DNA of 64,000 bases. Source: an uncultured Elusimicrobia bacterium. GTDB taxonomy: Bacteria > Elusimicrobiota > Elusimicrobia > 2-02-FULL-39-32. The notes beneath the pieces are model-generated. The model had not been told where the DNA came from. It did not search any database and worked only from the letters and a program-made list of their open reading frames with translations. A program made the translations under genes and the position numbers. Below, piece after piece: positions 42,869 through 64,000 of this stretch. The DNA is taken from positions 92,911-156,910 of the forward strand of contig CAZFYO010000003.1 in the NCBI GenBank assembly GCA_964523525.1. The letters are read 5' to 3'. The stretch's first letter is position 1; each line of letters begins with the position of its first letter.

Positions 42869-42869
42869 G

Positions 42870-44766: not shown

Positions 44767-44768
44767 GG

Positions 44769-45671: not shown

Positions 45672-45696
45672 GGCGGCTTCGCGCGGGCCCGAAAGG

Positions 45697-46686
45697 TTAC
45701 GGAACTTCGACCGCGTTAAAAATCGTCTTAACGATCTCTTCCGAGGTGGTTTCTTCCGCCTCGGCTTCGTAGGTGGGGATCACCCGGTGGCGCAGGACGT
45801 CGGGTCCGACCGCTTTCACGTCTTCGGGCGTCACATAGCCGCGTCCCTGCAGGAACGCGAAGGCCTTGGCGGCCTGCGTCAGGTAAATCGTGGCGCGCGG
45901 CGACGCTCCATAAAGAATCAGCTTCTTCAAATCCGCGACCTTGAAGTCTTCGGGCTGGCGCGTCGCGATCACGAGATCGAGAATGTAATTCTTGATCTTA
46001 TCATCGATATAAATCTGCTTGATGGACTGGCGCGCGTTCAGGATTTCCTGCGGCGAGACGACGGACTTGGCGGAAGGCAGCCCGGCCTGCGTCATGCGGT
46101 TCAGGATTTCGCTTTCTTCCGCGCGGGAGGGATAAGTGACTTTCAGCTTCAGCATGAAGCGGTCGATCTGCGCTTCAGGCAGCGGATACGTGCCTTCCTG
46201 CTCGATCGGGTTCTGCGTGGCGAGCACCAGGAACAGCTCCGGCAGGGCATGCGACGTGTCGCCGATTGTTACCTGTTTTTCCTGCATCGCTTCGAGCAAA
46301 GCGGATTGCACTTTGGCGGGCGCTCGGTTGATTTCATCGGCCAGCAACAGGTGCGTGAAGATGGGCCCCTTGCGCATCGTAAACTCCTGCGTCTTCGGGC
46401 TGAAAATCATAGTGCCGATGAGGTCGGCCGGCAGCAGGTCCGGCGTAAACTGGATGCGTTTGAACTCCGTCTGAATCGCGCTCGCCAGGGTTTTAATCGT
46501 TAACGTCTTCGCCAGGCCCGGGACGCCCTCGAGCAGGATATGCCCGCCCGCGAACAGTCCCACCAAAATTTTTTCGATCAGCTCATCCTGTCCCACCACC
46601 ACTTTAGCCAGCTCATTTTTGAGCGCGTGGATGAAGGCGCTTTCCTTCTGAATCTTCTCATGAATTTGCTTGATGTCGTTATCCAT
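45697..46686 (-). CDS. MoxR-family AAA+ ATPase
   Basis: Walker A (GVPGLAKT), Walker B (LLADEINRA) and MoxR-family length (329 aa); perfect SD AGGAGG upstream. Confidence 0.9.
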   Translation of the reverse strand: MDNDIKQIHEKIQKESAFIHALKNELAKVVVGQDELIEKILVGLFAGGHILLEGVPGLAKTLTIKTLASAIQTEFKRIQFTPDLLPADLIGTMIFSPKTQEFTMRKGPIFTHLLLADEINRAPAKVQSALLEAMQEKQVTIGDTSHALPELFLVLATQNPIEQEGTYPLPEAQIDRFMLKLKVTYPSRAEESEILNRMTQAGLPSAKSVVSPQEILNARQSIKQIYIDDKIKNYILDLVIATRQPEDFKVADLKKLILYGASPRATIYLTQAAKAFAFLQGRGYVTPEDVKAVGPDVLRHRVIPTYEAEAEETTSEEIVKTIFNAVEVP

Positions 46687-47535: not shown

Positions 47536-47581
47536 GGATTTTTTGGAATAAGAAAATTACGCATTGGGATCATCATTCAGT

Positions 47582-48217
47582 TCATATCTCTCTGGCCGGG
47601 CAGACCGCGACGAGCGGGCATTCCGGACATTGCGGGTTGATGGCTTTGCAAATTTGGCGGCCGTGGGTGATCATCGCGTGGGAAAACCAGATCCAGTCCG
47701 GTCGCCTCAAAACTTTGATCAGGTCCGCCTCGACTTTGACCGGATCTGTCTGCCGCGTAAAGCCCAGTTTTTTGGCGATCCGCTTCACATGCGTGTCCAC
47801 GACCACGCCGGAGGCGACCTTGAACGCGGTTCCCATGACGACGTTGGCGGTCTTGCGCCCCAGACCGGGAAGCTGCGTCAATTGATCAAAATTCTGCGGC
47901 ACTTCGCCGCCATATTTCTGATCGATAATCTTGCAGGCGCCCTGGATCCACCGCGCTTTCTGCCGGAAAAATCCCGTGGACTTGATGAGCGTCTCCAGTT
48001 CCTTAATAGGCGCATTGGCAAAGTCCCGCGCGGTCTTAAATCGCGCAAAAAGCGCGGGCGTCACCATGTTCACGCGTTTGTCGGTGCATTGCGCGGACAG
48101 AACCGTGGCCACCAGCAATTGCAGGGGCGTCTCGTGCGCCAGAGCGCACTCCACGTCGGGATAATTTTTCTTCAGAATTTGGAGGGCCTTGGAAAGATTT
48201 GCTTTGGGTTTTGGCAT
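47582..48217 (-). CDS. nth: Endonuclease III (DNA glycosylase/AP lyase)
   Basis: HhH-GPD motif (LPGLGRKTANVV) and C-terminal 4Fe-4S cluster Cys motif (CKAINPQCPECPLVAVC). Confidence 0.9.
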   Translation of the reverse strand: MPKPKANLSKALQILKKNYPDVECALAHETPLQLLVATVLSAQCTDKRVNMVTPALFARFKTARDFANAPIKELETLIKSTGFFRQKARWIQGACKIIDQKYGGEVPQNFDQLTQLPGLGRKTANVVMGTAFKVASGVVVDTHVKRIAKKLGFTRQTDPVKVEADLIKVLRRPDWIWFSHAMITHGRQICKAINPQCPECPLVAVCPAREI

Positions 48218-48286
48218 GAGAATAAATATATATCATTTTTTGCTGCACCGTGATAGAATATGCCGAACGTGCGGGGGCGCGAAAAT

Positions 48287-49354
48287 ATGCCAAAATTTTA
48301 CGCCAAGATTGACGAAGCCGTCGAAGGCCCCTTCGAGCCGCGCTTATTAAGGTATCTCCCCGGGTTTAATGAGGAAACCCTCGTTTCGCCCGAGGATTTG
48401 AACAGCCAGGATTGGACCCAGGCGCATCACGTCCCCGAGATCCGGCCGCATCTCCACCTCACTCCCGAGCTTTTGCCGCCCTCCGCCTTCGCGCCTCGCG
48501 CGGCGGCTCCGAATGTGTCCGCGCCGCCGGTTTCACCCGCAGAGTCTACTCAGCGCCTCAGCGATCCGGCGGTCTATCCGCCCATGCAGGCCAAGGCGGC
48601 TCCCGATCAGGAGCTCCTGGACGTCATGGAACAGTTTTCCGGCCAGATTCCAGCGGCGTCCGCTCAAAAGCCGGCCGCTCCCGCTGATATTCCGACTTTC
48701 AACCCGCCCGATCTGGGCGCGGCCGATGTATCCACGCTGGTCCCGCCCATGCAGGAGAAGTTCATCCCCAAAAAGGCGGTCAAATCCCGCAAGACACTCT
48801 GGATTTTGCTGGCGATCGCGGTCGTTTCGGCTGCCTTGGGTTATTTGGCCTGGACTATGGGCCTGCTGGACGCCTGGTTGAACCCGGCCGCGCCGCCCGT
48901 CCAGGTTGCACCCCCTCTCGAACCGGTCGCGCTGCCCATTGCGGAGAAGCCGGTTGAGCCGCCCAAGCCGCCGGAAGCGAAAAAGCCCGCCAAGAAGGCG
49001 AAGAAAGCAGTCACTCCGCCTCCCCCGGCGCCCAAACCCAAACCGGTCCGCCAGGATCCGCTCAAAATGCAGAAGTACATGATGCCCGGCGTCCCGTCGC
49101 CCAAGATGGAGGAAAAATCCAAGACTCCCGAAGTGCCAAAGCCGGAAGCGGAAGAGGCAAAGCCGGCGGATGAAGCGGGTCGGGACGCGGCCAAGCCGTC
49201 CCCCGAAAAACCGGACGACGAATATGAGCGCGAATTAAAGAAGGCCAAGAAGAAAGAAGCCGCGGAGAAGAAAAAACCCAAGCCAAAGTCCGCCAACGAT
49301 GAGGATTATTTCGATTTCCAATGGATCGGAGCCGACCCCGGCGAGAAGCGCTGA
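48287..49354 (+). CDS. Proline-rich membrane-anchored protein, hypothetical
   Basis: Single TM helix (LWILLAIAVVSAALGYLAW) flanked by Pro/Ala/Lys-rich low-complexity sequence; start taken as the ATG at 48287 (the track ORF begins at 48260). Confidence 0.5.
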   Translation: MPKFYAKIDEAVEGPFEPRLLRYLPGFNEETLVSPEDLNSQDWTQAHHVPEIRPHLHLTPELLPPSAFAPRAAAPNVSAPPVSPAESTQRLSDPAVYPPMQAKAAPDQELLDVMEQFSGQIPAASAQKPAAPADIPTFNPPDLGAADVSTLVPPMQEKFIPKKAVKSRKTLWILLAIAVVSAALGYLAWTMGLLDAWLNPAAPPVQVAPPLEPVALPIAEKPVEPPKPPEAKKPAKKAKKAVTPPPPAPKPKPVRQDPLKMQKYMMPGVPSPKMEEKSKTPEVPKPEAEEAKPADEAGRDAAKPSPEKPDDEYERELKKAKKKEAAEKKKPKPKSANDEDYFDFQWIGADPGEKR

Positions 49355-49406
49355 TCCGTTGAAGCCGCCCTCGGGCTTTGGTATCATATAAGACAACAGG
49401 TTGAAT

Positions 49407-49479
49407 GTGCCCGTAGCTCAGTTGGTAGAGCACTCGACTTTTAATCGAGTTGTCGAGAGTTCGAATCTCTCCGGGCACA
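49407..49479 (+). tRNA. tRNA-Lys (anticodon UUU)
   Basis: Cloverleaf folded by hand: acceptor stem GTGCCCG/CGGGCAC, D-arm GCTC-AGTTGGTA-GAGC, anticodon stem-loop CTCGA-CTTTTAA-TCGAG, T-arm GAGAG-TTCGAAT-CTCTC, discriminator A; 73 nt. Confidence 0.85.
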
Positions 49480-49523
49480 CCCTTTAACCTTCCTCCTCCC
49501 CAAAGAAAAAAACGCGCAGGATA

Positions 49524-49552
49524 TTGACAATCTGAAGCGTTGGGTGTATAAT
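49524..49552 (+). promoter_or_regulatory. Consensus sigma-70 promoter (TTGACA-N17-TATAAT) upstream of the TetR gene
   Basis: Perfect -35 TTGACA (49524-49529), 17-nt spacer and perfect -10 TATAAT (49547-49552); imperfect palindrome AACCAATC/GGATGGTT just downstream (49553-49568) could be an operator. Confidence 0.5.
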
Positions 49553-49573
49553 AAACCAATCGGATGGTTATTT

Positions 49574-50185
49574 ATGGCTAGACCACATAATTTTGAGGCA
49601 AAACAGCGCATCCTCTGCGCGGCGTACGGGCTCTTCCACGAGAAGGGGTTCCGGGGCGTCAGCATGGATGACGTGGCCGGGGCCGCCAAGGTCAAGAAGG
49701 CCAACCTCTTCCACTATTTCCCGAGCAAGGAAGACCTGGGGCTCGCGGTTTTCGATTACGCCGCCGCCTGCCAGAAGGAGCGGATCCTGAACACCTACGC
49801 CCCGGAAAACAGCGAAGACCCGGTCCGGTTCGTCGGGCAGATCTTTGCGGCGTCGCAGGAGAACATGAAAAAGAACAGCTGCTGCCGGGGCTGTTTCATG
49901 GGGAACTTCGCGCAGGAGATGAGCGACCATAACGAGAAGATCCGCAAAAAGATCGAGCAGTATTTCGATTTCTGGCTGGAACAGATGGCGGACGTGCTGG
50001 AACGGGGGAAGGAAAAGGGCTTCTTCAGGAAGGACCTGAAGCCCAGGGAGTCGGCAGGGGCCATTTTGGCATTACTGGAAGGGGCTCTGATGTTTTCCAA
50101 GACGCGCAAGAACGTGACGGCGCTGCAAAACGCCGGGCGGATGGCCTCGGAATACCTGGAAAATTATCGGACCGCGAGAAATTGA
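49574..50185 (+). CDS. TetR/AcrR-family transcriptional regulator
   Basis: N-terminal HTH typical of TetR (…GFRGVSMDDVAGAAKVKKANLFHYFPSKEDL…); start at the ATG at 49574. Confidence 0.85.
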   Translation: MARPHNFEAKQRILCAAYGLFHEKGFRGVSMDDVAGAAKVKKANLFHYFPSKEDLGLAVFDYAAACQKERILNTYAPENSEDPVRFVGQIFAASQENMKKNSCCRGCFMGNFAQEMSDHNEKIRKKIEQYFDFWLEQMADVLERGKEKGFFRKDLKPRESAGAILALLEGALMFSKTRKNVTALQNAGRMASEYLENYRTARN

Positions 50186-50203: not shown

Positions 50204-51100
50204 ATGTCCAACGAGTTGATTGTAGTGACGGCGGCGACGGGGAATATCGGAAGCAAACTGTCCGGGTTGCTGCTGGCGAAGGGAAAAAAGATCCGGGTCG
50301 TGGGGCGCGACGCTTCGAAGCTCGAAACGTTCAAGAAGAAGGGCGCCGAAGCCGCGGTCGGGAACGTGGAAGATCAAGGATTTGTCGAGAAGGCGTTTGC
50401 CGGGGCCGGAGCGGTCTTTACGCTCGTGCCGCCCAATTACGGGACGCCCCAGTTTCGCGCTTATCAGAATAAGGTAGGCGATATTTACGCGAAGGCTCTT
50501 GAAAACTCCGGTGCAACGCACGTGGTAAACCTCAGCAGCGTTGGGGCGCACCTCCCCGAGAAAGTGGGCCCGATCAAGGGGCTTTACGATATCGAGCAGA
50601 AGCTGAACCAGTTAAAGGCGAATGTGATCCATCTGCGCCCGACGTTCTTCATGGAAAACACGCTGATGAACATCGGCCTGATCAAGCAGATGGGAATTAA
50701 CGGAACGCCGATGAAGGCCAGCCTCAAAGTTTCCATGATTGCCACCGCGGATATCGCGAAGGCGGCGGCGGAACGGCTAACGAATCTGAACTGGACGGGA
50801 AAATCGGTGCTGGAGCTTTTCGGCCAGCGGGACCTGACCATGGCGGAAGTGACGGGCATCATCGGAAAGGCGATCAATAAAAGCGATCTAAAGTACGTCG
50901 AGTTTCCTTACGCGGACGCCGAGAAGGCGCTGCTGGGAATGGGGATGTCGGCGGATGCCGCCAAAAACATGGTGGAGATGTATCAGGCCTTTAACGACGG
51001 GATCGTGAAGCCGACGCAGTCGCGGAATGCCGAAACTACGACGGAAACATCCATCGAAAAGTTTGTTGAAACTGTATTCGCAAAAGCGTATCTAAATTAG
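50204..51100 (+). CDS. NmrA-like NAD(P)H-binding protein
   Basis: Rossmann motif (IVVTAATGNIGSKL) and NmrA-like length; adjacent to TetR, a common regulator-target pair. Confidence 0.8.
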   Translation: MSNELIVVTAATGNIGSKLSGLLLAKGKKIRVVGRDASKLETFKKKGAEAAVGNVEDQGFVEKAFAGAGAVFTLVPPNYGTPQFRAYQNKVGDIYAKALENSGATHVVNLSSVGAHLPEKVGPIKGLYDIEQKLNQLKANVIHLRPTFFMENTLMNIGLIKQMGINGTPMKASLKVSMIATADIAKAAAERLTNLNWTGKSVLELFGQRDLTMAEVTGIIGKAINKSDLKYVEFPYADAEKALLGMGMSADAAKNMVEMYQAFNDGIVKPTQSRNAETTTETSIEKFVETVFAKAYLN

Positions 51101-51184: not shown

Positions 51185-51231
51185 AAAAGAGAAAGGCCTG
51201 ATCGCTAACGCGATTACGGCCTTTCTCTTTT
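51185..51231. terminator. Bidirectional intrinsic-terminator-like hairpin between the NmrA-like gene and aceK
   Basis: 14-bp stem (AAAAGAGAAAGGCC / GGCCTTTCTCTTTT) with inner ATCGC/GCGAT stem; U-rich 3' flank on both strands; the aceK stop codon lies in the loop. Confidence 0.5.
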
Positions 51232-52974
51232 GAGGCGGGACGGTTCCTTGTAGGGGAGTATTTCCGCGATTTCGCCGGCTGCGAGGCGCTTCTGGAGGTC
51301 CTGCCAGTAGCGCACCGTGAAGAGGTCGCCGTGGAGCGGGTCGAAGACCTTGCGCATCCTCGGGTCGAGTCCGATGAACGTCCTGAACTCCTGGGGAAAG
51401 ATGTCGGCATCGCCCACGTAGAACCAGGGTTCGCTTTCCAGCTCCTCGCTTTCGTCCCGCGCCGCCGGGACCTCGCGGATATTGCAGTCCGTCAGCAGGC
51501 ATAGCTCATCGTAGTCGTAAAAGACCACCCGTTCGTTGCGGGTCACGCCGAAATTCTTCAGCAAAATGTCGCCCGGAAAGATGTTGGCCTTGGCCATGTC
51601 CTTGATGGCGCTCCCAAAATCCACCGCCGCATCCCGCGCCAGCTCTTCCGGCGCTTCCTTCAAGTAAATGTTGAGCGGCACGACGCGGCGCTCCGTATAG
51701 AGATGGCGGATGATCACGGTGTCGCCGGAAATCGAGACGGATTTGGCGGCCTGTTGAGTGAGCTCCTGCAGAAGCTCTTCAGTGAAGCGGCTCTTATCGA
51801 ACTCCAAATGTTCAAATTCTTGCGCATCCACAAGGCGCCCGGCGCGGTCGTGCTGGAACACGAGGTGGTACTTGGCCAATACCTGCTGGCGCGACGTGCG
51901 TTTTGTGTAACTGAATTTGTCTTTAATGATTTTGAAAACTACGTCATAAGATGGCAGCTCGAACACGGTCATCACCATGCCCTTTTCGCCCGGGGAGATG
52001 CGGAATTTATCTTTTGATTCCTGAAGGTGGCGGTAGAGGTCGCGGTAGAGCTCGGTTTTTCCGTGCTTGTTGAATCCGATGGAAATGTAGAGCTCGGCTT
52101 TGGGCTTTTGCGGCATTATAGACTGCAGGAAATCGACCAGCTCCCGGGGCTTTTTGACCTTCACGTGAAAATAGGAGCGCGTGAAGCTGAATACGATGCT
52201 GACTTCGGAATCATTGAGCAAAACCGCGTCCACCAGGATCTGGCCCGCAGGGTTGCGGAGCGCCAACACCAGCGGCAGTTCGCCTTTGGCGGCGCGGATT
52301 TTACCGACGATAAATGCGCCGTTGCCGCGATAAAAGACGGGCTTGATCACGTCGATCTGTTCGAACTTTGCCGAGCCGAAACGGGATTGGAGCTGCTGTT
52401 CAATGCGCCGCGCGCACAGTTCCGCGTCTCCGCCGATATCTTCGAATGGCGCGTTGAATTCGTAGCGTTTCAGAAGCTCTATCAAAAGGTTCGGCAGGGG
52501 CCCGTTGCTGGGATAGGAACGGTAAATGGGTTTTTCGCTCTGGATCGGCGGCGTATCGAGCTCGGAGTCGAGATACTCCGCGCCGGGCTCGGTGCCAATC
52601 ACCACCATGACCTTGCGCAGGGTGGAGTTGTAAAACGTTTTGGCCAGTTCGATATCCTGCCGCGCCGCTACGAGAGCGGTAAAATTCATTTTAGCCTGCG
52701 ACCAGAGGCGGCTGTCGTTGTGTCCGCTGCCGACCAGCTCCTTGACCTTGGGGATCAGCTGGTTGATGATCTTGGTATAGAGGTCGAGGCGCTCGATGGC
52801 GTCGCGCTGCGCGCCGGTCCAGTCGCACTTCTCGAAACGGGTGCGGGCCCGGGAGGTGATCTCCGTAAATTTTTCCTGATAGATGTTGAACGCTTCGAGG
52901 ATGAGCGCGGCGCAGCCGGCGGCGGCGGCCGCGCGGGCGGCGGGGTCGGAGGAGGAGGACGGTTCGCGGCTCAT
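51214..52974 (-). CDS. aceK: Isocitrate dehydrogenase kinase/phosphatase
   Basis: AceK-family similarity over 586 aa (…NIYQEKF…, kinase-like C-terminal region); divergent from aceB. Coordinates are taken from the ORF track; my own base indexing disagreed by 1 nt near 52.92 kb. Confidence 0.85.
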   Translation of the reverse strand: MSREPSSSSDPAARAAAAAGCAALILEAFNIYQEKFTEITSRARTRFEKCDWTGAQRDAIERLDLYTKIINQLIPKVKELVGSGHNDSRLWSQAKMNFTALVAARQDIELAKTFYNSTLRKVMVVIGTEPGAEYLDSELDTPPIQSEKPIYRSYPSNGPLPNLLIELLKRYEFNAPFEDIGGDAELCARRIEQQLQSRFGSAKFEQIDVIKPVFYRGNGAFIVGKIRAAKGELPLVLALRNPAGQILVDAVLLNDSEVSIVFSFTRSYFHVKVKKPRELVDFLQSIMPQKPKAELYISIGFNKHGKTELYRDLYRHLQESKDKFRISPGEKGMVMTVFELPSYDVVFKIIKDKFSYTKRTSRQQVLAKYHLVFQHDRAGRLVDAQEFEHLEFDKSRFTEELLQELTQQAAKSVSISGDTVIIRHLYTERRVVPLNIYLKEAPEELARDAAVDFGSAIKDMAKANIFPGDILLKNFGVTRNERVVFYDYDELCLLTDCNIREVPAARDESEELESEPWFYVGDADIFPQEFRTFIGLDPRMRKVFDPLHGDLFTVRYWQDLQKRLAAGEIAEILPYKEPSRLKRERP

Positions 52975-53062
52975 GCTATTTCTTATCAGGAATGGCCCGT
53001 TTAATCAAGAGGCAGAAACGAGCCGAAAAAGGCGTGGCAAGTGCGTTGCGTCTCGATGTCCG

Positions 53063-53102
53063 GCGGAAAAAAATAAACTGAAATTTCCGCTTGAAATTTT
53101 CC
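53063..53102. promoter_or_regulatory. Candidate operator in the aceK-aceB divergent intergenic region
   Basis: Inverted repeat GCGGAAA-N14-TTTCCGC (53063-53090) plus direct repeat TGAAATTTCC / TGAAATTTTCC (53079-53102), overlapping a -35-like TTGAAA about 35 nt upstream of the aceB ATG. Confidence 0.3.
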
Positions 53103-53130
53103 TTAACTTCATTAGAGTTAGAGAGCCATT

Positions 53131-54732
53131 ATGCCAAACGACCCCTATTCCGCCCTCGGAGTCCGGTTCACGGAACCGGTCGCGCCGGACCAGCAAAGCA
53201 TCCTTTCGGAGGCCGCGGTCTCCTTTTTAGCCAAACTCGTCCGCGAATTCGGGCCAAGGCGCGCGGAGCTGCTGCGTAAACGCACCGAACGGCAGATGCG
53301 GATTGACGACGGCCTGAGGCCTTCATTTCTGCTGGAAACCCACGGCGTGAGGGAAGGAAACTGGACCTGCGCTCCCATCCCGAAGGATTTGATGGACCGC
53401 CGGGTTGAGATCACCGGTCCCACCGACCGCAAGATGATCATCAACGCGCTCAATTGCGGCGCCAACGTCTTCATGGCGGACTTTGAGGACTCGAACGCTC
53501 CCACCTGGAAGAACATGATCCAGGGCCAGATCAACCTGCGCGACGCGGTCCGCGGCAAAATCGATTTTACCAGCCCCGAGGGCAAGGAATATAAGCTTAA
53601 ACCCAAAACCGCGACCCTGATGGTCCGGCCGCGCGGCTGGCACCTCGAAGAAAAGCACGTGCTTGTCGACGGAAAACCGGTCTCGGCTTCACTTTTTGAT
53701 TTTGCGGTCTTCTTCTTCCACAACGCGCAGGCGCTCATCGATAAAGGCACCGGCCCTTACTTTTATCTGCCCAAAATGGAGAGCCATCTGGAAGCGCGGC
53801 TCTGGAACGACGTATTTTTGCGCGCTCAGGACGAGTTGAAGATTCCGCGCGGCACGATCCGCGCGACCGTGTTGATCGAAACGATCCTGGCGGCCTTCGA
53901 GATGGACGAAATCCTCTATGAGCTGCGCGACCATTCCGCCGGGCTCAACTGCGGGCGATGGGACTACATCTTCAGCTTCATCAAGAAGTTCTGCGCCTAT
54001 CCCGATAATATATTCCCCGACCGCGCCCAGGTCGGCATGACCACCCATTTCCTCCGTTCCTATTCCAAACTGCTCATTCAGACCTGCCACCGGCGCGGCA
54101 TCCACGCGATGGGCGGCATGGCGGCGCAGATTCCCATTAAAAACAATCCCGCGGCCAACGACGCGGCCATGGCCAAGGTGCGGGCCGACAAGGAACGCGA
54201 AGTCACCGACGGCCATGACGGCACCTGGGTGGCGCATCCCGACCTCGTGGGCATCGCCAAAGAGATTTTTGACAAACATATGAAGGGCCCGCATCAAATT
54301 GATAAAAAAATCACCGATCTGAAGGTGACGGCCGAGGATTTATTGATGGTTCCCAAGGGCGATATCACCGAAGCAGGGCTGCGCACCAACATCGACGTGG
54401 GTGTGGCGTATCTCGAAGCCTGGCTGCGCGGACAGGGCTGCGTTCCCATCTACAATTTGATGGAAGACGCCGCGACCTCCGAGATTTCTCGGGCGCAGGT
54501 CTGGCAGTGGATCCATCACCGGGCCAAAATGACCGACGGGCGGATGGTGACCGCCGAGCTGTACCGTTCGCTGCTGAAGGAAGTCATTGAAGCGGTGCGC
54601 TCGCATCTGGGCCAGGAAAAATTTGAGCAGAGCAAATTCGCCTTGGCCAGCCTTCTTTTCGAAAAGATGGTGACGGCCGAACACTTCCCGCAGTTTCTGA
54701 CGCTGGAAGCCTATGGCAAACTCGAGGGATAA
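53131..54732 (+). CDS. aceB: Malate synthase A
   Basis: Malate synthase A family similarity across 533 aa (…[22 protein letters not shown]…[40 protein letters not shown]…). Confidence 0.9.
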
Positions 54733-54736
54733 CTCC

Positions 54737-56035
54737 ATGAACGAATCACAGCGGATCGCGCAGGACTGGAAAAGAAATCCCCGTTGGAAAGGAATCGTTC
54801 GCAATTATTCGCCTGCCGATGTACTGCGTTTGCGCGGGTCCATGAAGATTGAGCATACGCTCGCGCGGCGCGGAGCGGAAAAATTTTGGAAGCTGCTGCA
54901 TTCGGAGCCCTACATTCACGCTTTGGGCGCCATGACGGGCAACCAGGCCGTCGAGATGGTGCAGGCGGGGCTGAAAGCGATCTATTTGAGCGGCTGGCAG
55001 GTTGCCGCCGACGCCAACAATACGGGGCAGATGTATCCCGACCAGAGTTTATATGCCGTGAGCTCGGTGCCCGAGAAGGTGCAGGCGATCAACCGCGCGT
55101 TGCAGCGCGCCGATCAGGTTTGGCACCTCGAGCGGAAGTCCAAGATCGACTGGTTTGCGCCCATTGTGGCCGATGCCGAGGCTGGGTTTGGCGGGGCGTT
55201 GAATGCCTACGAGCTCATGAAGGCGATGATCGAAGCGGGCGCCGCCGCGGTTCACTTTGAAGACCAGCTCGCCAGCGAAAAAAAGTGCGGACACATGGGC
55301 GGCAAAGTCCTCGTGCCCGCGCAGGAGTTTATTCGCAAACTCGAGGCGGCGCGCCTCGCTTCCGACGTGCTCGGGGTCCCGACTTTGATCGTGGCGCGCA
55401 CGGATGCCGATGGAGCCAAGCTTTTAACCAGCGATATCGACGAGCGCGACCAGGAATTCATGACCGGCGAACGGACCGCGGAAGGGTTTTACCGCATCAA
55501 GGCCGGCGTGGACTGCGCCATCGCGCGCGGCGTCGCCTACGCGCCCTACGCGGACCTGGTCTGGTGCGAAACCTCCAAGCCCGATCTGCATGACGCCAAA
55601 AAATTCGCGGAAGGCGTGCTCAAAAAGTATCCCCGCAAGCTGCTGGCCTACAACTGTTCGCCTTCCTTCAACTGGAAATTGAACCTGAGCCCGTCGCAAA
55701 TCGCAAAATTCCAACAGGAAATCGGCCGGATGGGTTATAAATTCCAGTTTGTGACGCTCGCGGGCTTCCACGTGCTGAACGCGGGCATGTTTGAGCTGGC
55801 CTCCGGCTACAAAAAGGCCGGCATGGCCGCCTACTCCAAATTCCAGGAAAAAGAATTCGAGATGGAAAAGAAACAGGGATTTGCCGCCGTCAAACATCAG
55901 AGTTTCGTCGGCGCGGGCTATTTCGATGAGATTCAAAACGTACTGACCGGCGGCCAATCGTCCACAAAGGCGCTCAAAGACTCCACCGAGGAAGACCAGT
56001 TCAAGCCGGGTCAGAAGAAAGGCCGGCGCAAGTAA
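54737..56035 (+). CDS. aceA: Isocitrate lyase
   Basis: Isocitrate lyase active-site region (KKCGHMGGK) and family similarity; start at ATG 54737, 5 nt after the aceB stop. Confidence 0.9.
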
Positions 56036-57169
56036 GTGACGTCAAAAATTTCTTCCTTTAACCCTCCTATCCGCACCCTCCTGGGGCCCGGACCCTCCAA
56101 CCTGCACCCGCGCGTTCTGGCCGCGATGGCCAAACCCACGATTGGGCACCTCGATCCCGAGTTTATCCGCATGATGGACGAGCTGCAGCTGCTTCTGCGC
56201 GACGCTTTTCAGACCCGGAATGAAATGACGATGGTCGTCTCCGGCCCCGGGTCGGCCGGAATGGAAACCTGCTTCGTGAATTTGATCGAACCCGGCGAGA
56301 AAGTGATCGTCTGCCAGAACGGCGTCTTCGGAGGCCGGATGAAGGAGAACGTCGAACGCGCGGGCGGAACCTGCGTTTTGATCGAAGACCCCTGGGGCCG
56401 CGCGGTGGACCCGCAAAAGCTCGAGGACGCGCTCAAGAAAAACCCCGACGCGAAACTGGTCGCTTTCGTCCACGCGGAAACGTCCACGGGCGCGCTGAGC
56501 GACGCGAAGACCCTGGCGCAGATCGCGCACAGCGCGAATTGCCTCGTGATCGCCGATACCGTGACATCTTTGGGCGGCGTTCCGCTTCTGGTGGACGAGT
56601 GGGAGCTGGACGCGGTCTATTCCGGCAGCCAGAAGTGCCTGTCCTGCGCTCCGGGACTGTCGCCCATCACGTTCAGCGAGCGGGCCATGAAGAAAGTGAA
56701 GGGACGCTCCGGCAAGGCGCGCAGCTGGTTCCTGGACCTGAACCTCGTCACGGCCTATTGGAACGCCGGGACAGGGGCCGGCGGCAAGCGGGTCTATCAC
56801 CATACCGCTCCGGTCAACGCTCTTTACGGGCTGCACGAGGCGCTGGTTCTCCTGCAGGAAGAGGGGATCCAAAATTCCTGGGCTCGCCATCAAAAAAATC
56901 ATGAAATTTTGAAAAAAGAGCTGGCCGCGCTGGGCATGACGTTCTTCGTGCCCGAGAAAGAGCGGCTGCCGCAATTGAACGCGGTCGTGATTCCCGAGGG
57001 AAAAGACGACGCGCAGATCCGTTCCCGCCTCCTGAACGAGTTCGGCATCGAAATCGGCGCGGGGCTGGGCGTGCTCGCCGGAAAAATCTGGCGTATCGGC
57101 CTGATGGGCTACTCCTCCAACCCCGAAAACGTCAGGCACCTTAAAGAAGCGCTGAAGAAACTGATTTGA
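56036..57169 (+). CDS. Class V aminotransferase (alanine/serine--glyoxylate aminotransferase-like)
   Basis: PLP fold-type I class V features (…FVHAETSTGAL…VDEWELDAVYSGSQKCLSCAPGLS…); GTG start abutting the aceA stop. Confidence 0.8.
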   Translation: MTSKISSFNPPIRTLLGPGPSNLHPRVLAAMAKPTIGHLDPEFIRMMDELQLLLRDAFQTRNEMTMVVSGPGSAGMETCFVNLIEPGEKVIVCQNGVFGGRMKENVERAGGTCVLIEDPWGRAVDPQKLEDALKKNPDAKLVAFVHAETSTGALSDAKTLAQIAHSANCLVIADTVTSLGGVPLLVDEWELDAVYSGSQKCLSCAPGLSPITFSERAMKKVKGRSGKARSWFLDLNLVTAYWNAGTGAGGKRVYHHTAPVNALYGLHEALVLLQEEGIQNSWARHQKNHEILKKELAALGMTFFVPEKERLPQLNAVVIPEGKDDAQIRSRLLNEFGIEIGAGLGVLAGKIWRIGLMGYSSNPENVRHLKEALKKLI

Positions 57170-57197: not shown

Positions 57198-58292
57198 ATG
57201 GCGCGCGAAATCCGGCCCGCTCTGAGAACGGGCGTCAGCGTCAAAGCCCAGCTGATCGCCCGGCTGCGCTTCAGCCACGTCCTCACGCTTTCCGAGAAGG
57301 AATTTGCCCGGATGATCAGCGACATCGAGAATGATCCGCTTTTCCAGAAATTTCTATACCCCAAAGATTCCGGACCCAAGGCCATTTTCAAGCGGCGCGT
57401 CCCGCACCAGCGCCTGTCCCCCGCCTTCTACGAAGCGAAGGACGAGATCAGCGCCGGCGCGGAAGGCGTGGACGTTGAGAATATCCTGGAGCAGCACCGG
57501 GGAGTGATCGATTTGATCCGCAAAATCGGCCAGGAGTCCTTTGAAAAGCATTTCCTCTACAAGGAGGGGACCGAATCCGCCGCTTCCATCGCCGAGAAGT
57601 GCGGGGTTTTCCCGGAGGACGTGATGAGGGTTCAGGCGGCGGTCACCCAGCTTTCCGTGCATTCGGAGTTTTTCAATCCGACCACACTGCCGGCCGAAAC
57701 GGGCCTGCGCTACACCCTGATCGCCCGGATCGACCCCGATGAACAGGGCTCGTTCTGGATCTCGTTCACGTCGCCGCACCTGGCGGCGGGGCGTTACGTC
57801 ATCAATCCGGAGCGCGTGGACGCGCTCAAAAAAGATTTGGCCGCCTCCGAAAGAAAAGCGGTCACGAACCTGATTCAGAAGCTGGAGCTCATCAACCTGC
57901 GGCAGGACACCCTGCACAAGATGCTGCAGGAAGTCCTGGTCCGGCAGAAAGGCTATCTGAGCTCCAACGACGCGTCGCGCCGCCTGCCGCTTTCCCAGCG
58001 CGACATGGCCGCCCACCTCGGCGTTGCCGCCTCCACGGTTTGCCGGGCGCTCTACGGAAAAAGCGTGCTCGCTCCCTGGGGCCGGGAAATGCCGCTCAAG
58101 GATTTCTTCGTCAACAAGAAAAACGCCGCCGAGGAGTGGGTCCGGCAGATCCTCGAGGAAATGCCCGAGGAAAAAAGGGACCAGTTGAGCGACAATGATT
58201 TGCGCGGCCTCCTCGCCCAGCGTTTTCGGTGCAAGGCGTCCCGCAGGTCCGTCAATCTCTATCGCCGCGCGGTTGAACAAAAATCAAAGTAG
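57198..58292 (+). CDS. rpoN: Compact sigma-54-like factor (RpoN family), about 365 aa
   Basis: Region-I-like N-terminus (VLTLSEKEFARMISDIENDPLFQK), sigma-54 HTH (LPLSQRDMAAHLGVAASTVCRAL…LKDFF) and RpoN-box-like C-terminus (SRRSVNLYRRA). Shorter than typical RpoN. Confidence 0.65.
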   Translation: MAREIRPALRTGVSVKAQLIARLRFSHVLTLSEKEFARMISDIENDPLFQKFLYPKDSGPKAIFKRRVPHQRLSPAFYEAKDEISAGAEGVDVENILEQHRGVIDLIRKIGQESFEKHFLYKEGTESAASIAEKCGVFPEDVMRVQAAVTQLSVHSEFFNPTTLPAETGLRYTLIARIDPDEQGSFWISFTSPHLAAGRYVINPERVDALKKDLAASERKAVTNLIQKLELINLRQDTLHKMLQEVLVRQKGYLSSNDASRRLPLSQRDMAAHLGVAASTVCRALYGKSVLAPWGREMPLKDFFVNKKNAAEEWVRQILEEMPEEKRDQLSDNDLRGLLAQRFRCKASRRSVNLYRRAVEQKSK

Positions 58293-58466: not shown

Positions 58467-61400
58467 GTGAATCGGGGCCGCAAAGCGGTCGCCTGCGCTC
58501 TCGTGCTGTCCCTTTTACAGTCCGTGCTGCTCGCCCCGGCGGTTCAGGCGGGGTTGTGGCAGGACCGCCGCGAAGCGGCGAAGTCGCTTCCCTTGCTGGC
58601 GCAGCTGCCGGCGGACCTGGCCCCTATGGGTCCGTCGAACTGGCAGATGGACGCGCCAGCCAGCCCGCTCGCTTCGAGCCTGCAGAATTTCGCCGCTCCT
58701 TCCTGGCTCCGAAACCTTCCCCTCCAATACGCCAGTCTGAGGCGTTTGTCATTCCCGCCCGGCTGGAACCCTTCCGACCCCATCGTCATCCATATCCAGG
58801 ACGTGCACCAGAACGCCGAGGCGCAGGAGAACATCAGCCTGACGCTGCGTGAGCTGATCCGCGGGGGCCGGTTGAACCTGGTCGCGCTCGAAGGCTCGTT
58901 TGAAACGATGGATTTCAGCCGGTTCCGCTCCTACGAGGACGCGGATTCGGTGCGAAAGGTAACGGACTATCTGCTGCGCGAGGGGAAAATTTCCGGCGCG
59001 GTGCATGCCGCGTTCGCCAGCGAGAAGGCCCCGCCCAAATTTGCCGGCGTCGATGACCGCGAGCACTATTTCGCGCATGTCGATGCATACAAGAATTCGC
59101 GGGGCGCGGCGCAGGAAGTGAAAAAGGCTCTGGCGTCCCAAATGCAGGCGCTGGAAACGGAGAAAGCCGCGAAACTGAACCCCGATCTCAAAGCATTTGA
59201 CGCCGCCGTGCGCGATTTCCGCGCTGAAAAAACGAAGCTGGGCGCTTACGTCCAGTTTTTGACGGCCCGAAGCAAGAAGACCCTTCCCGAGGTCCAGAAA
59301 TTCCTGAAAGCCTTCAAAGCCGAATCGAGCCTCGATTTCGCGCGGGCGGAAAAAGAGCGCGGCGAGATCATCAACAAGCTCGTGAAGAACCTCGGCCGCG
59401 ATCAGGTCAACGGACTTTTGAATGCCAGCCTCTCTTATCGCGTGGGCCGAACGCGCCACGGCGATTTCTACGTCTATCTCCGCGATCTTTGCGCCAAGAA
59501 CGGCGTCGAGTTTGCAAAGTACGCCGCGATGGACGCCTATCTCCAATATGTTTTGTTGTCGGACAGCATCAACGCCGAGAAGCTGCTGCATGAAGTGGAT
59601 TCAATGGAAGCGGCGGGCTATCAGGCGCTCGCCAAAACCCCGCAGGAAACCATCCTGATTAAAAAATCCAAATGGCTTCATCTGGCGGACAAGCTGGTGG
59701 ATTACTCGCTGTCTCCCAAAGAGTGGAAGGAATATCACTCGATGCGGGACTTGGGAGATTCCATGCTGCGCGATCTGGAGCCTTTCGAGGGATTCTTTAA
59801 AGAGGCCCTGATTCGCGATGAGGCGATGGCCGCCAACTTCATCCGCTCCATCGGGACGGATAGGAATGCGGCGGCGGTGCTGGTGACCGGCGGATTCCAT
59901 TCCGAGGGCATTGAAGAGCGTCTGAAACGCAAAGGGATCGCGGTGTTGACGCTGGCACCCAAAATCAGCAAGGTCGAGACGAAAGACGGCGCGGCGTACC
60001 TCAACGTTTTCACGCAGGAAAAAACCCCGCTCGAAAAACTCTTCCAGGGAGAAAAGCTTTTCGTCACTCCGGAAGTGTTTTCACATTCCACGGAATTGTC
60101 TGCTGCGGCCTTTATCGCCCTCTTCAAACGGACAGTTGAGTCAGCCAACGACGCATTCCACCGGCTGAGCGGTTCAAAAGGCGCCGCCTACAATATCATT
60201 TCGGTTGAGCTCACTGAGGGCATCGTCGGTACATTGGAAGGGCCGCAGGGCTCGGAGCGCTTCAAAATCCAGGCCAACGATGAATCCATCGAAAGCGTTC
60301 AATTCATTCCGTTTTCAGGCATGCGCGGCGTCATGGGTCTTTTCCTGGGGAAGGCCAAAGCCATGGGCCTGTACGGCGAAAAATTATGGACGTTTGTCAG
60401 CCGGATCAATTCCGCGCCGATGTCGGTCAAAATGGTGATGGCCGCCGCGGTCGCCCTGCCGCTGTCGTTCCTGTTCAATGAAATGGCGCCCGGACTGGTG
60501 ATGATGGCCACGGTCGGAAGCTCGATGGGGCCCGGCGAGACCGGAAACGAAGCGCGCGCCAAAGTGCTCTGGCACATCGGCTTCGCGCCCGTGCCGAACG
60601 CGCCGGAACGGACCCTTTTTCTGCGAAGCGAAGCGGAGGCCGCCCGCCTCATGCCGGTTCCCCCGGCGGACACGTGGGTCGAAGTCCGTTACCTGGGAGA
60701 GCGGTCCGAATTCCTGCGCATGTCCATGTACCGGCGCGATCCGGGTGAGACCGAGGACCAGTTTTGGGGACGGCACATGCGCGATTCCGAGGAACGGAAA
60801 CTTTTCGACCTGTACCTCACCATCGATCCGTCGTTTTCCGACACGGTCTGGCTGAGTCCGGGCAAGGCGTATCCGGCGCTCCGCGAATTGTTCGGCCCCG
60901 GCGGCTATTCCAGCGAGGCCTGGATACGCGACACGCTCCTGCCCTGGCTGACCGAGCGCGGGTTCGTGGAAGTAAAAGTCGGCCTGCAGGAATCCAGCGA
61001 TAAGCTTTTCAAATCCCTGGGGTTCACGAAATTCGGCGGAGGGACGATGCGAAAAGTCCTGAACGCCAAGTTAAGGCGGCGTTCGGCGCGTTCTCTGACT
61101 CGGGCACCCGCGCCCTGGACGCTCGAAGAGCGGAGGAAGGACGCCATCCTGCGGATATTGAACGGTAGGACGGAGTCGGCCAACATTGTCCAGCTGTACG
61201 CGGAATTCGCGAAGGACCCGGCCTTTGAAGACGCGACCCAATCCGAGTTCGCCGACCTGGTGATGCGGACGCCCGCGATCCTTGACCACCCGATGCTGAG
61301 CCGGTCCCGGAGCGGGGCGTGGCACGTAGGTGATATGGCTCAAATCGTGGCCAAACAGCTGGTGTCCTCAAGCGACCGGCTTGTTTCCAGGTTTACGGCC

Positions 61401-64000
61401 GATTTAGCAGAACCCCTGAGGCAGGTTATTCTCTCGGCCCTTGCGAAATCAAGAGAAGCCGGGAGTGGAGGATATCAGACTTTTATCGATAACTTAACTT
61501 TTGAGGATCGTCCGATAAGCGAAGAAGAATATATGGATATGCTCTATACGTGGTCTGAAAAGTCCACTGTTGAATTTAACAGCGATCTTCAAAAAAGAGT
61601 TGAGGACAGCATTGTCAGGCAATACCAGCGCAATGGGTCAAAAGTAGAGTCGAGGAGAGGGGCTCAGGCGCGAGTATCCGGCAAGGGAAATTATTCGATG
61701 ACGGTTCTGATCAGCCAGCAGGGTTATCCCGCTCTGACATTCAACATTCTCTTGTCCAACAGAAGGAGGTTTTTCGCGGATCCGGACAACCATATTCTCG
61801 CCCAGCATCGTCCTATATCGTTCGGCGCTTATAATTACTTGCTGCTCCTCCAATCAAGGGTTTTTGATCTGGATGACGCGATACTTGATCTTGTTATCAA
61901 GCATGAGATTGAAGAGATGATGGTAAAACACCGGTCCAGGAACCGGATCGGCGCGGCGGAGGCTCACCGCCTTGCGCTTCAATCCTCGGGGGATGAGCGC
62001 TCTGTTGGAAAAGTGCAGGCCGCGCTTCGCGCACAGAATCAAAAAGACGTTTCCGTCCGCAGGGTGCAAAAATTCCTGGGATCCGCGATCGACGAATCCT
62101 TCATCCGGGAAAATGTGGATGCGCTGGAATTGGTGTGCCTGGACGCTGACGACTATCTGGAACTCCTGCCTTCGGATTATTTGGAGGTTAAGAAATATGC
62201 AGCTAACGTCAGTCCGATTCATTTGATGCTGGATTTGATATTTCTAAATTGGAAAGACCCCGCGGAGCCTGCCGAGTTCATCGCGAATTTGCCCCGCATT
62301 CAGCGGCTTTTGGGGAAGGATTGGTTTACGCACAATTGGACCAATCTGGTAACGCAGTACAGCCAGATGGGCGCGGAGCAATTCAATGGAATTTTTGAGC
62401 GTCAGAGGAACGATCCTTGGATCAGGAATAAAAGCCGGGACTGGCTGAGAGAGTATTTTCTGGACATTCCCAATATCCGCCCCATGAAGGAGGAAAAGGA
62501 CATTGAAGCCGTTTTTGAAGGCGGCCTGGAAAACAGCGGATCCGAATTTGACGACTTAAGATCCGCGATCCGGTCCTATCCCGATATATTGACCGAATCC
62601 ATCAAGGCAATTTACAGGGTTCAAGCGGTCGATTTCAGGACGGATGACATCGTTAAGGTAGGGGTCAAAAAAATCGGCGACGGCACCAGCAACGCGGTTT
62701 TCCTGCTGACTGAAATCGTTTTGTCCAATGGCAGGGTGGTTTCCCAATATCCGATCGTCATGAAGGTCAGCAAGGAATCGACCTATGATCTGACCCATCA
62801 GGGAATGCAGCAGATCGTTCAGGCCGCGCGGGAGCTTGCCGCTCAGGATCCTCCGCTGTATCCCAGGATCGGGGGGCAGTGGATTTTTGACTATCTGCAT
62901 GAGTTTTGGATTGTGAGCGAAGAGTTTGTCCCGGGTCCCACGCTTTGGAACGAGATAGCAGGAGTCCGGATGGATCCCGATCTCGGCGATGCCGAAAAGG
63001 AAAGAAGGATCATCGATCTCCTTGCCAGGCAGTTCGACGTGTATCTTCGAGCCTGGAAAACGTGGAACGAACGTTCCGGGGCCCCGCATTGGATCGAAAG
63101 CAAATTTATCGGCGATCCCAATTCTCTTAATATCATCGGAAGAATGATTGTTGACCTGAACTCGCTGCAGGAGTCCATGACACCGGCCGAAATCGTCGAA
63201 CAGATGATACCGGAGGATGTTCTGGCGGATTCGTCTCCACTGTATTCAATATTTGTCCGGCTGGCCCAGGATATCATGGGCGGAGACAGCGGCCGCCAGT
63301 TTCTGTACAGCTCGCACAATCTCAAAATTTTGAGCGCGCTGGAAGAGTATGAGGAATCCGAGGCCGAAAATGACGGCGGCATTGAGCCCGTTAACTCTCT
63401 CGCCTACTGGATCGCCGATCTGGCGCGCTTGAGCCCGTCCAAAGCGAGAGCGGTCGGCCTCGCGGGGCTGGCCGTGGAAATCCCGGCGCTGATCGCGGCC
63501 GGACTGGTGTTGCCGTTCTTCGGCATGGCAGCCTTCCTGGGAGTCTTCGCGGGCGCCCACATCCTCCTGGAAAAAATTTCTGCCGGCCGCCAGAACCGCG
63601 GCCCCCCGACTTTACGCCAGACGGCCGCCCAAATCATCGCGTTCCTTCCGTATCTGCTGATTTCCATCGCAGGAATTTTTTCCGACTCCATTTTAAGTCA
63701 GTATTTCCTTCCCGCTCTCACCGCGGTCTTCGTCCACGCGAAATTTGACCTGCCACTGATCACCCGGCGTTTCCCCAAAGCCGTTTTCAGCCCTGCCGCG
63801 GCCGCCGGGCCTGCGATGCGCCTGTCGGGACAGGGATTGACGGCCGCGCAGCACGTCGTGGTCAACGAAGCGGTCGCAGGATTTTTCAACCGTCCGGTGA
63901 CGGCAAGTGAGCGGCGCATGCTGATCCCAAGAACCCAGGACTACCGCGCTCTGGATCCCACCGGCGCGCTGGCGGCGGAAGGCGTCCGCATCTATGCCCT
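58467..64000 (+). CDS. Giant secreted/membrane multidomain protein, 5' portion (frame open to the window end; more than 1,840 codons in window)
   Basis: Frame 0 has stops at 58377-58379 and 58410-58412 and then none to position 64000 (checked by hand at several coordinates). Not in the track, presumably because no stop lies in the window. Strong SD AAGGAAAGGAGA at 58411-58422; candidate starts CTG 58428 or GTG 58467; signal-peptide-like N-terminus (NRGRKAVACALVLSLLQSVLLAPAVQA). Confidence 0.75.
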   Translation, partial: MNRGRKAVACALVLSLLQSVLLAPAVQAGLWQDRREAAKSLPLLAQLPADLAPMGPSNWQMDAPASPLASSLQNFAAPSWLRNLPLQYASLRRLSFPPGWNPSDPIVIHIQDVHQNAEAQENISLTLRELIRGGRLNLVALEGSFETMDFSRFRSYEDADSVRKVTDYLLREGKISGAVHAAFASEKAPPKFAGVDDREHYFAHVDAYKNSRGAAQEVKKALASQMQALETEKAAKLNPDLKAFDAAVRDFRAEKTKLGAYVQFLTARSKKTLPEVQKFLKAFKAESSLDFARAEKERGEIINKLVKNLGRDQVNGLLNASLSYRVGRTRHGDFYVYLRDLCAKNGVEFAKYAAMDAYLQYVLLSDSINAEKLLHEVDSMEAAGYQALAKTPQETILIKKSKWLHLADKLVDYSLSPKEWKEYHSMRDLGDSMLRDLEPFEGFFKEALIRDEAMAANFIRSIGTDRNAAAVLVTGGFHSEGIEERLKRKGIAVLTLAPKISKVETKDGAAYLNVFTQEKTPLEKLFQGEKLFVTPEVFSHSTELSAAAFIALFKRTVESANDAFHRLSGSKGAAYNIISVELTEGIVGTLEGPQGSERFKIQANDESIESVQFIPFSGMRGVMGLFLGKAKAMGLYGEKLWTFVSRINSAPMSVKMVMAAAVALPLSFLFNEMAPGLVMMATVGSSMGPGETGNEARAKVLWHIGFAPVPNAPERTLFLRSEAEAARLMPVPPADTWVEVRYLGERSEFLRMSMYRRDPGETEDQFWGRHMRDSEERKLFDLYLTIDPSFSDTVWLSPGKAYPALRELFGPGGYSSEAWIRDTLLPWLTERGFVEVKVGLQESSDKLFKSLGFTKFGGGTMRKVLNAKLRRRSARSLTRAPAPWTLEERRKDAILRILNGRTESANIVQLYAEFAKDPAFEDATQSEFADLVMRTPAILDHPMLSRSRSGAWHVGDMAQIVAKQLVSSSDRLVSRFTADLAEPLRQVILSALAKSREAGSGGYQTFIDNLTFEDRPISEEEYMDMLYTWSEKSTVEFNSDLQKRVEDSIVRQYQRNGSKVESRRGAQARVSGKGNYSMTVLISQQGYPALTFNILLSNRRRFFADPDNHILAQHRPISFGAYNYLLLLQSRVFDLDDAILDLVIKHEIEEMMVKHRSRNRIGAAEAHRLALQSSGDERSVGKVQAALRAQNQKDVSVRRVQKFLGSAIDESFIRENVDALELVCLDADDYLELLPSDYLEVKKYAANVSPIHLMLDLIFLNWKDPAEPAEFIANLPRIQRLLGKDWFTHNWTNLVTQYSQMGAEQFNGIFERQRNDPWIRNKSRDWLREYFLDIPNIRPMKEEKDIEAVFEGGLENSGSEFDDLRSAIRSYPDILTESIKAIYRVQAVDFRTDDIVKVGVKKIGDGTSNAVFLLTEIVLSNGRVVSQYPIVMKVSKESTYDLTHQGMQQIVQAARELAAQDPPLYPRIGGQWIFDYLHEFWIVSEEFVPGPTLWNEIAGVRMDPDLGDAEKERRIIDLLARQFDVYLRAWKTWNERSGAPHWIESKFIGDPNSLNIIGRMIVDLNSLQESMTPAEIVEQMIPEDVLADSSPLYSIFVRLAQDIMGGDSGRQFLYSSHNLKILSALEEYEESEAENDGGIEPVNSLAYWIADLARLSPSKARAVGLAGLAVEIPALIAAGLVLPFFGMAAFLGVFAGAHILLEKISAGRQNRGPPTLRQTAAQIIAFLPYLLISIAGIFSDSILSQYFLPALTAVFVHAKFDLPLITRRFPKAVFSPAAAAGPAMRLSGQGLTAAQHVVVNEAVAGFFNRPVTASERRMLIPRTQDYRALDPTGALAAEGVRIYA

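Follow-up and report, generated by a model that had tools for sequence, protein, structure and literature searches.

An AGXT-family aminotransferase and a sigma-54-like gene follow aceB and aceA in a glyoxylate-shunt locus of an uncultured Elusimicrobia bacterium

Introduction

What purpose is served when the genes of an aminotransferase and of a sigma-54-like protein follow the two enzymes of the glyoxylate shunt, and how would such a gene set be controlled? The question is raised by a locus of an uncultured Elusimicrobia bacterium (assembly GCA_964523525.1, contig CAZFYO010000003.1, positions 92,911 to 156,910). The whole stretch of 64,000 nucleotides (nt) that was analysed is referred to below as the window; its closest relatives are metagenome-assembled genomes of Elusimicrobiota. 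The locus holds aceB (malate synthase A), aceA (isocitrate lyase), a class V aminotransferase gene of the AGXT family (agxt) and s54L, encoding the sigma-54-like protein, with aceK (isocitrate dehydrogenase kinase/phosphatase) on the other side of aceB. The reading adopted here, to which somewhat better than even credence is given, is that aceK and the four-gene operon aceB-aceA-agxt-s54L form a module for the assimilation of C2 units (acetate). The literature yielded nothing specific for Elusimicrobia with sigma-54, isocitrate lyase or glyoxylate, nor for an operon joining isocitrate lyase with AGXT.

Results

Gene order, junctions and conservation of the proposed operon

The positions of all features, with the profile matches that identify them, are listed in Table 1. 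A first interpretation, made from the letters of the stretch (the sequence-only reading), had placed aceK on the strand opposite to aceB and divergent from it; the open reading frame (ORF) listing and the profile searches bore this out, and the spacer between the two genes measured 156 bp. Its claim that a class V aminotransferase with a GTG start abuts the aceA stop also held, as the TAA of aceA (56033-56035) is followed by the GTG (56036-56038) with a gap of 0 nt. The other junctions were 4 nt (aceB/aceA) and 28 nt (agxt/s54L), and the ATG of s54L was preceded by a ribosome-binding site, GAAGGTG. For aceA the ATG at 54737, 4 nt past the aceB stop, was taken as the likelier start, in agreement with the gene call (432 amino acids, aa) of L001, a public locus with the same sequence as the window (comparison loci carry the prefix L). 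AceK, AceB and AceA were 37% (over 562 aa), 53% and 61% identical to their E. coli counterparts, and both Pfam domains of AceK, regulatory and kinase, were found (PF20423 and PF06315).

The order aceB-aceA-AGXT-s54L was found in L001 and in the further genomes represented by L002/L003, L008 and L035, with AGXT identities of 77-83% across the set. The aceA/AGXT junction was an overlap of 1 nt in L035 and a gap of 10 nt in L002, and in L002 the AGXT and s54L genes overlapped by 11 nt, with ackA (acetate kinase) 15 nt past s54L, inside the shunt operon. The predicted co-transcription of agxt with aceB and aceA is supported, because the junction in the window is 0 nt and the order is kept in L002/L003, L008 and L035. 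The operon aceB-aceA-aminotransferase-rpoN of the sequence-only reading therefore stood in part: gene order, tight junctions and conservation in relatives favour it, but its last gene is not the usual rpoN (76 vs 277 bits, with only the C-terminal half sigma-54-like).

A linkage of AGXT with isocitrate lyase that is general to the AGXT clade was ruled out, since three of three homologues of about 70% identity (one in a Latescibacterota genome, two on metagenome contigs) had unrelated neighbours and no adjacent isocitrate lyase. The shunt genes were further compared with metagenomic aceB loci, of which the 80 closest (61-71% identity) were taken. Among these the order of the genes varied, with aceB-aceA, aceA-aceB, divergent aceA/aceB (about a dozen) and, in L077 and L084, aceBAK. 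None of the 80 carried s54L, and only two, L108 and L069, had an AGXT-like gene adjoining aceB. The AGXT-shunt linkage is thus clade-specific and conserved in the clade, with rare independent parallels; a functional tie to glyoxylate is therefore supported, the direction of flux not being proven by it.

The two parallels lie on unrelated contigs and are independent cases in which an aminotransferase gene is joined to the shunt: in L108 (3416-6196) and L069 (5563-8354) the AGXT-like gene, of 49% and 32% identity respectively, stands directly beside aceB on the same strand.

In the window, aceA and agxt were also seen to share a reading frame with one TAA between them, so that read-through would yield a fusion protein. 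An isocitrate lyase-AGXT fusion made in this way was rejected; the shared frame is coincidental, because the genes are in different frames in L002 and L035.

Identity of the aminotransferase

The aminotransferase belongs to the group of alanine:glyoxylate (AGT), serine:glyoxylate (SGAT) and serine:pyruvate (SPT) aminotransferases, as judged by its matches and its aligned residues. PF00266 was matched at 94.9 bits (cut-off 21.5). The top match in the PDB was 1vjo, the AGT of Nostoc (alr1004), with an E-value of 1.4e-108 and 174 of 362 aligned residues identical (48%). Mammalian AGT/SPT followed at 1e-82 to 1e-85 (human AGT at about 1e-82), and after them mosquito AGT/HKT, PucG and ureidoglycine-glyoxylate aminotransferase. 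Cysteine desulfurases, the alternative against which the AGXT/SGAT grouping was tested, matched at 1e-5 or weaker, and the grouping held. Source databases likewise label the homologues as AGXT family. Cysteine desulfurase, PhnW, pyridoxamine-pyruvate aminotransferase and BhcA were each rejected as identities, all being far under their cut-offs or far weaker than AGXT.

The active site was compared with that of characterised AGT. All residues examined for binding of pyridoxal phosphate (PLP) and of the substrate carboxylate were kept: K200, D174, F98, Y254/T257 and R353 of the window enzyme align with K209, D183, W108, Y260/T263 and R360 of the human enzyme. The Tyr/Thr pair among them makes the contacts to the phosphate.

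The GTG start is taken to be correct because the conserved LLGPGPS motif of the family lies within the 30 residues that precede the first internal Met, and because homologues span 99-100% of the 377-aa protein from the GTG; solved AGTs align with it from residue 8. A public protein (P0001, 347 aa) begins at the internal Met, which is too late and drops the 30 N-terminal residues, LLGPGPS included.

The sigma-54-like protein and its family

The s54L protein fell short of the rpoN equivalog TIGR02395 (76.1 bits, cut-off 277.35) and matched the Pfam domain Sigma54_DBD (PF04552) at 65.5 bits (cut-off 22.8), over residues ~230-361 only. By hhalign, residues 154-364 were aligned with residues 253-470 of E. 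coli RpoN at 98.4% probability, so that just the last part of the core-binding domain (E. coli residues 253-270) was covered. A smaller profile of 15 s54L sequences aligned with E. coli RpoN at residues 234-360 only, and with a profile of 148 sequences the sigma-54 of A. aeolicus was matched along positions 183-364 (1.7e-26). The RpoN-box arginines R349 and R350 and the STxxR residues of the helix-turn-helix (HTH), S279, T280 and R283, were near-invariant in the family. When Foldseek was run with s54L, the top 27 matches were all sigma-54 chains, with alignments of up to 460 columns. Toward the N-terminus, an E-x-DPLF motif resembles ESNPLLE and weakly matches region I, and the fragment 127-152 gives a weak alignment to part of the core-binding domain of the Aquifex protein. 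The N-terminal 215 residues folded alone gave a confidence (pLDDT) of 54, a model too poor for fold comparison.

A word-indexed search returned 16 relatives, and the family was counted by an exhaustive profile search. It comprised 297 clusters (50% identity) at E<=1e-30, nearly all of 345-390 aa and matched end to end. All named members were from Elusimicrobiota, as were 21 of 21 GTDB loci encoding the family (Elusimicrobia/Elusimicrobiota). Source databases label the members "hypothetical protein" or "sigma54-like". By these profile data s54L represents a real family that keeps the C-terminal DNA-binding half of sigma-54 and is not canonical rpoN. Of the proteins of the window that were scanned, none was a canonical RpoN.

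Genomic neighbours of s54L

Orthologues of s54L (44-47% identity) were followed by ackA in L004, L006, L012, L013 and L015, sometimes with a small histidine kinase gene between. Since ackA follows s54L in these five and in L002, the family is tied to acetate metabolism. In L009 the order was s54L, histidine kinase, NtrC-type activator, and L011 looked alike as far as its contig reached; upstream of an s54L paralogue, L024 had a kinase and an activator. Both complete NtrC-type activators (L009 4413-5714, L024 2185-3528) kept the Walker A motif intact (GESGTGK) and carried ESELFGHxKGAFTDA, in which GAFTDA replaces GAFTGA, the canonical loop for contact with sigma-54. This replacement may have co-evolved with the unusual N-terminus of s54L.

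A second s54L paralogue of 33-35% identity was observed in L006 (12085-13167, minus strand) and L012 (12191-13276, minus strand). It is convergent to the first, two to three genes away, beside a PAS histidine kinase gene.

Putative promoter elements of the aceK/aceB spacer

A sigma-54-type -24/-12 motif, TGGCAAGTGCGTTGC, faces aceB 82 nt upstream of its ATG. The exact pattern TGGCA-N6-TTGC occurs once in the window, within this spacer, where chance would give about 0.68 per window. The clade genomes for which the region upstream of aceB was available are two, the window and L116. The latter has its own exact motif toward aceB, which lies 89 nt upstream of that gene and overlaps the start codon of aceK. 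In 69 other aceB loci no exact motif stood within 260 nt of aceB. In 343 kb of non-redundant Elusimicrobiota loci, nine exact motifs were counted against 3.4 expected, and seven or eight of the nine were intergenic and faced a downstream gene, intergenic sequence being 9% of the total. This enrichment and placement led us to conclude that enhancer-dependent promoters are probably in use in these organisms, including before aceB in the clade.

Promoter scanning also gave a sigma-70-like promoter, TTGAAA-N16-TAGAGT, just ahead of aceB. The block TCTTATCA...TAATCAAG beside the aceK start, kept in the spacer alignment of the window with L116, is possibly an aceK promoter or operator. No riboswitch was found ahead of aceB, the Rfam search of the window giving a tRNA only, and no IclR-type regulator was found among the window proteins scanned.

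In the distant relatives L004, L006, L012 and L013, -24/-12 motifs stand at the head of the operon that immediately precedes s54L. A TGnTAnAAT-like -10 box was observed about 9 nt before the s54L ATG, with no Shine-Dalgarno sequence, in L006 (8700-8775), at the equivalent places of L012 and L013, and in L004/L015 (9950-10001), which suggests that the mRNAs of s54L are leaderless or near-leaderless there. A strong hairpin was seen after the upstream TPR gene, preceding s54L, in L006, L012 and L013. Use of the -24/-12 motifs of the four relatives to drive s54L itself was considered and is weakened by the -10-like box and, in L006, L012 and L013, by the hairpin; the likelier target of these motifs is the neighbouring operon upstream.

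The aceK side of the locus

L116 keeps the divergent aceK/aceB arrangement, with an AceK 67% identical to that of the window. L116 shares its sample with L002, and probably its genome too. It also keeps the pair of genes beyond aceK, for a TetR-family regulator and an NmrA-like protein. The closest named relatives of the window AceK were from Chloroflexi, Rokubacteria and Acidobacteria (51-56% identity). The divergent aceK is an unremarkable variant, and the shunt genes themselves are ordinary.

Other features of the window

Downstream of s54L, and separated from it by 175 nt of AT-rich sequence, a giant ORF of more than 1,844 aa (58467-64000, plus strand) begins and runs past the end of the window. 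Its N-terminus resembles a signal peptide, no Pfam domain was matched at 1e-5, and homologues of it lie near s54L in L035 (5436-6701) and L012 (18985-20646).

Farther off, an 'aerotolerance'-type operon (BatA-BatD/MoxR/DUF58/VWA-TPR) at 38581-46686 (minus strand) is unrelated to the shunt locus. Two adjacent ORFs of 229 and 364 aa without a Pfam match (47564-49354, plus strand) lie just upstream of tRNA-Lys(UUU) at 49406-49482. The genes folD (methylene-THF dehydrogenase/cyclohydrolase; 25586-26482, minus strand) and metF (reductase; 28212-29090, minus strand) are some 25-30 kb away, and their relevance is limited to the feeding of one-carbon (C1) metabolism by glycine and serine.

Table 1. 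Features of the glyoxylate-shunt locus and its spacer, in positions of the window
Feature	Position	Strand	Basis or remark
TetR-family regulator	49544-50185	+	Pfam match; downstream of aceK
NmrA-like NAD(P)-binding protein	50204-51100	+	Pfam match; downstream of aceK
aceK, isocitrate dehydrogenase kinase/phosphatase	51214-52974	-	NF002804, 722 bits (cut-off 488)
Conserved block TCTTATCA...TAATCAAG	52981-53009		Beside aceK start; kept in window/L116 spacer alignment
Sigma-54-type -24/-12 motif TGGCAAGTGCGTTGC	53035-53049	+	82 nt upstream of aceB ATG
Sigma-70-like promoter TTGAAA-N16-TAGAGT	53091-53118	+	Promoter scan; just ahead of aceB
aceB, malate synthase A	53131-54732	+	TIGR01344, 834 bits (cut-off 594.5)
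aceA, isocitrate lyase	54737-56035 (ORF opens 54713)	+	NF011645, 746 bits (cut-off 562)
agxt, AGXT-family class V aminotransferase (alanine/serine:glyoxylate type)	56036-57169	+	PF00266 match
s54L, 364-aa sigma-54-like protein	57198-58292	+	Sigma-54 DNA-binding module (extra-long helix, HTH, RpoN box) in the C-terminal half; N-terminal half unassigned

Discussion

Proposed workings of the locus

In the proposed C2 module, isocitrate lyase would split isocitrate into succinate and glyoxylate, and malate synthase would condense the glyoxylate with acetyl-CoA. The AGXT-family PLP enzyme, translated from the same mRNA by termination-reinitiation at the TAA-GTG junction, would convert part of the glyoxylate to glycine, with alanine or serine as the probable amino donor. 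AceK would phosphorylate isocitrate dehydrogenase and thereby send isocitrate into the shunt. The s54L protein would most likely read the -24/-12 element that precedes aceB by about 85 nt, may bind core RNA polymerase, and would lay an enhancer-dependent, self-reinforcing control over the basal sigma-70-type promoter. The diversion of glyoxylate to glycine is plausible because the enzyme is a member of the AGXT family and its linkage to aceA is conserved in the clade.

Several observations weigh against this reading. The aminotransferase reached none of the NCBIfam equivalog cut-offs, and AGXT-family enzymes are promiscuous. The -24/-12 motifs of the window and L116 stand at positions that cannot be aligned, that of the window in a 68-nt insertion relative to L116; the element truly conserved between the two, in hexamers and spacing, is the sigma-70-like TTGAAA-N16-TAGAKT. 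In the distant relatives s54L seemingly has its own -10-like box, behind a hairpin. The window proteins that were scanned included no enhancer-binding protein. Region I (PF00309, Sigma54_AID) and the core-binding domain (PF04963, Sigma54_CBD) gave no match at E<=10 in 15 members of the s54L family, whether whole proteins or isolated segments were searched, and the core-binding domain of the sigma-54 chains in the PDB was not matched by the 148-sequence profile, which found the C-terminal half only. The hhalign alignment of s54L 1-52 with region I of E. coli (1-50) was colinear and weak (E-value 0.11, 0.5% probability).

Alternative explanations

On the metabolic side, the aminotransferase might be a valve that clears toxic glyoxylate when acetyl-CoA is limiting, or it might run in reverse or with other partners and feed glyoxylate derived from glycine or serine to malate synthase. 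The breadth of the AGXT family, which spans alanine:glyoxylate, serine:pyruvate, serine:glyoxylate and ureidoglycine:glyoxylate enzymes, is consistent with such a role, as are the unreached equivalog models and a donor that sequence does not fix. We nevertheless regard it as improbable. The equilibrium of characterised AGTs lies far toward glycine, genes of purine catabolism or the serine cycle are not adjacent, and detoxification and glycine supply are the same reaction, so that this explanation differs from the C2 module chiefly in physiological emphasis. On the regulatory side, the -24/-12 motifs before aceB could be chance matches, the conserved sigma-70-like promoter alone driving the operon and s54L being a passenger. 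The chance expectation per window speaks for this, as does the place of the window motif in sequence that L116 lacks, the sigma-70-like element being shared; we think it rather unlikely all the same, since exact motifs stand at similar distances from aceB in both clade genomes available and in none of the 69 controls, and since exact motifs across Elusimicrobiota loci are strongly concentrated in intergenic sequence facing downstream genes.

It is also unlikely, in our estimate, that s54L is no sigma and acts on -24/-12 sites as a DNA-binding regulator without core binding, as repressor or decoy, while a canonical sigma-54 encoded elsewhere transcribes. Such a role is kept in consideration because the core-binding domain is undetectable: the DNA-binding half alone is recognisably sigma-54, and no counterpart was found to E. 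coli residues ~51-252, the stretch with the main core-binding determinant. The two paralogues side by side in some genomes (L006, L012) would fit it as well. The family length of about 360 aa, close to the 398 aa of Aquifex sigma-54, argues for a sigma, as do an N-terminus colinear with region I (a weak match, E-x-DPLF included), the long Foldseek alignments to sigma-54 and the activator and kinase genes directly adjoining s54L. Elusimicrobium minutum, the sole cultivated genome of the phylum analysed in 2011, reportedly is without sigma-54 and without activators of it, and that report gives no positive sign of a canonical sigma-54 in the phylum (PMC3162934). A divergent working sigma is favoured for s54L, on account of its size near that of the Aquifex protein, its colinearity with sigma-54 and its activator and kinase neighbours. 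A wider proposal is held to be doubtful, namely that s54L typifies a sigma-54-derived class from which the canonical regions for core binding and activator contact have been lost (an independent reader of -24/-12 promoters, a decoy or repressor, or a sigma docking on RNA polymerase through a new N-terminal domain) and that by way of it the locus ties both acetate assimilation and the supply of glycine to such control.

Significance

The operon would hard-wire the glyoxylate branch between anaplerosis through malate synthase and the formation of glycine, a low-cost way to obtain glycine and C1 units when acetate or lipids support growth. Such a route is otherwise known from yeast Agx1 and implied in SAR11, and the coupling of aceA with agxt, though neat, is a modest variant in metabolic terms. 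The regulatory side is the larger point: a sizeable family of sigma-54-like proteins of about 360 aa has been left unnamed or generically labelled, and this compact family and its capture into a carbon-metabolism operon are the part most worth following. If s54L is a working sigma, it is about 34 residues shorter than the Aquifex protein and could serve as a natural experiment on which parts sigma-54 cannot do without; otherwise it would be a new type of regulator for enhancer-dependent promoters.

Comparison with known systems

The three proteins of the E. coli aceBAK operon are all encoded in the window, and in both aceB is directly followed by aceA. In E. coli aceK is third in the operon and on the same strand, whereas in the window it is upstream and divergent. 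The E. coli operon comes with IclR; the window, with no such regulator found among the proteins scanned, has agxt and s54L added after aceA and a -24/-12 motif.

With the AGXT family (Nostoc AGT 1vjo, human AGT1, yeast Agx1) the window enzyme has the fold type and catalytic residues in common, that is, the Schiff-base Lys in SGSQK, the Asp to the pyridine nitrogen, the aromatic residue stacking on PLP and the Arg for the carboxylate. Yeast Agx1 makes glycine from the glyoxylate of isocitrate lyase, the pathway proposed for the window. The window gene differs in being translationally abutted to aceA, the homologues of about 70% identity not being beside isocitrate lyase. BhcA, the aspartate:glyoxylate aminotransferase of the beta-hydroxyaspartate cycle, is also a class V glyoxylate aminotransferase, and its model NF045640 was matched, but at 194 bits (cut-off 650) and with no bhcBCD-like genes seen nearby.

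In SAR11 a glycine riboswitch acts on malate synthase (glcB), and the same decision is made as is proposed here, the splitting of carbon at the glyoxylate node by glycine status (PMC5069720). SAR11 uses an RNA switch for this, whereas in the window, where no riboswitch was found, the link would be the co-transcription of the competing enzymes.

From sigma-54 of Aquifex aeolicus (398 aa, PDB 5ui5) s54L differs in that region I and the core-binding domain are undetectable, in the GAFTDA activators of its relatives and in the place of its gene inside a metabolic operon. It shares with that protein the C-terminal ~200 residues (beta segment, extra-long helix, HTH and RpoN box), and TGGCA-N6-TTGC motifs and genes of NtrC-type activators occur near s54L in relatives.

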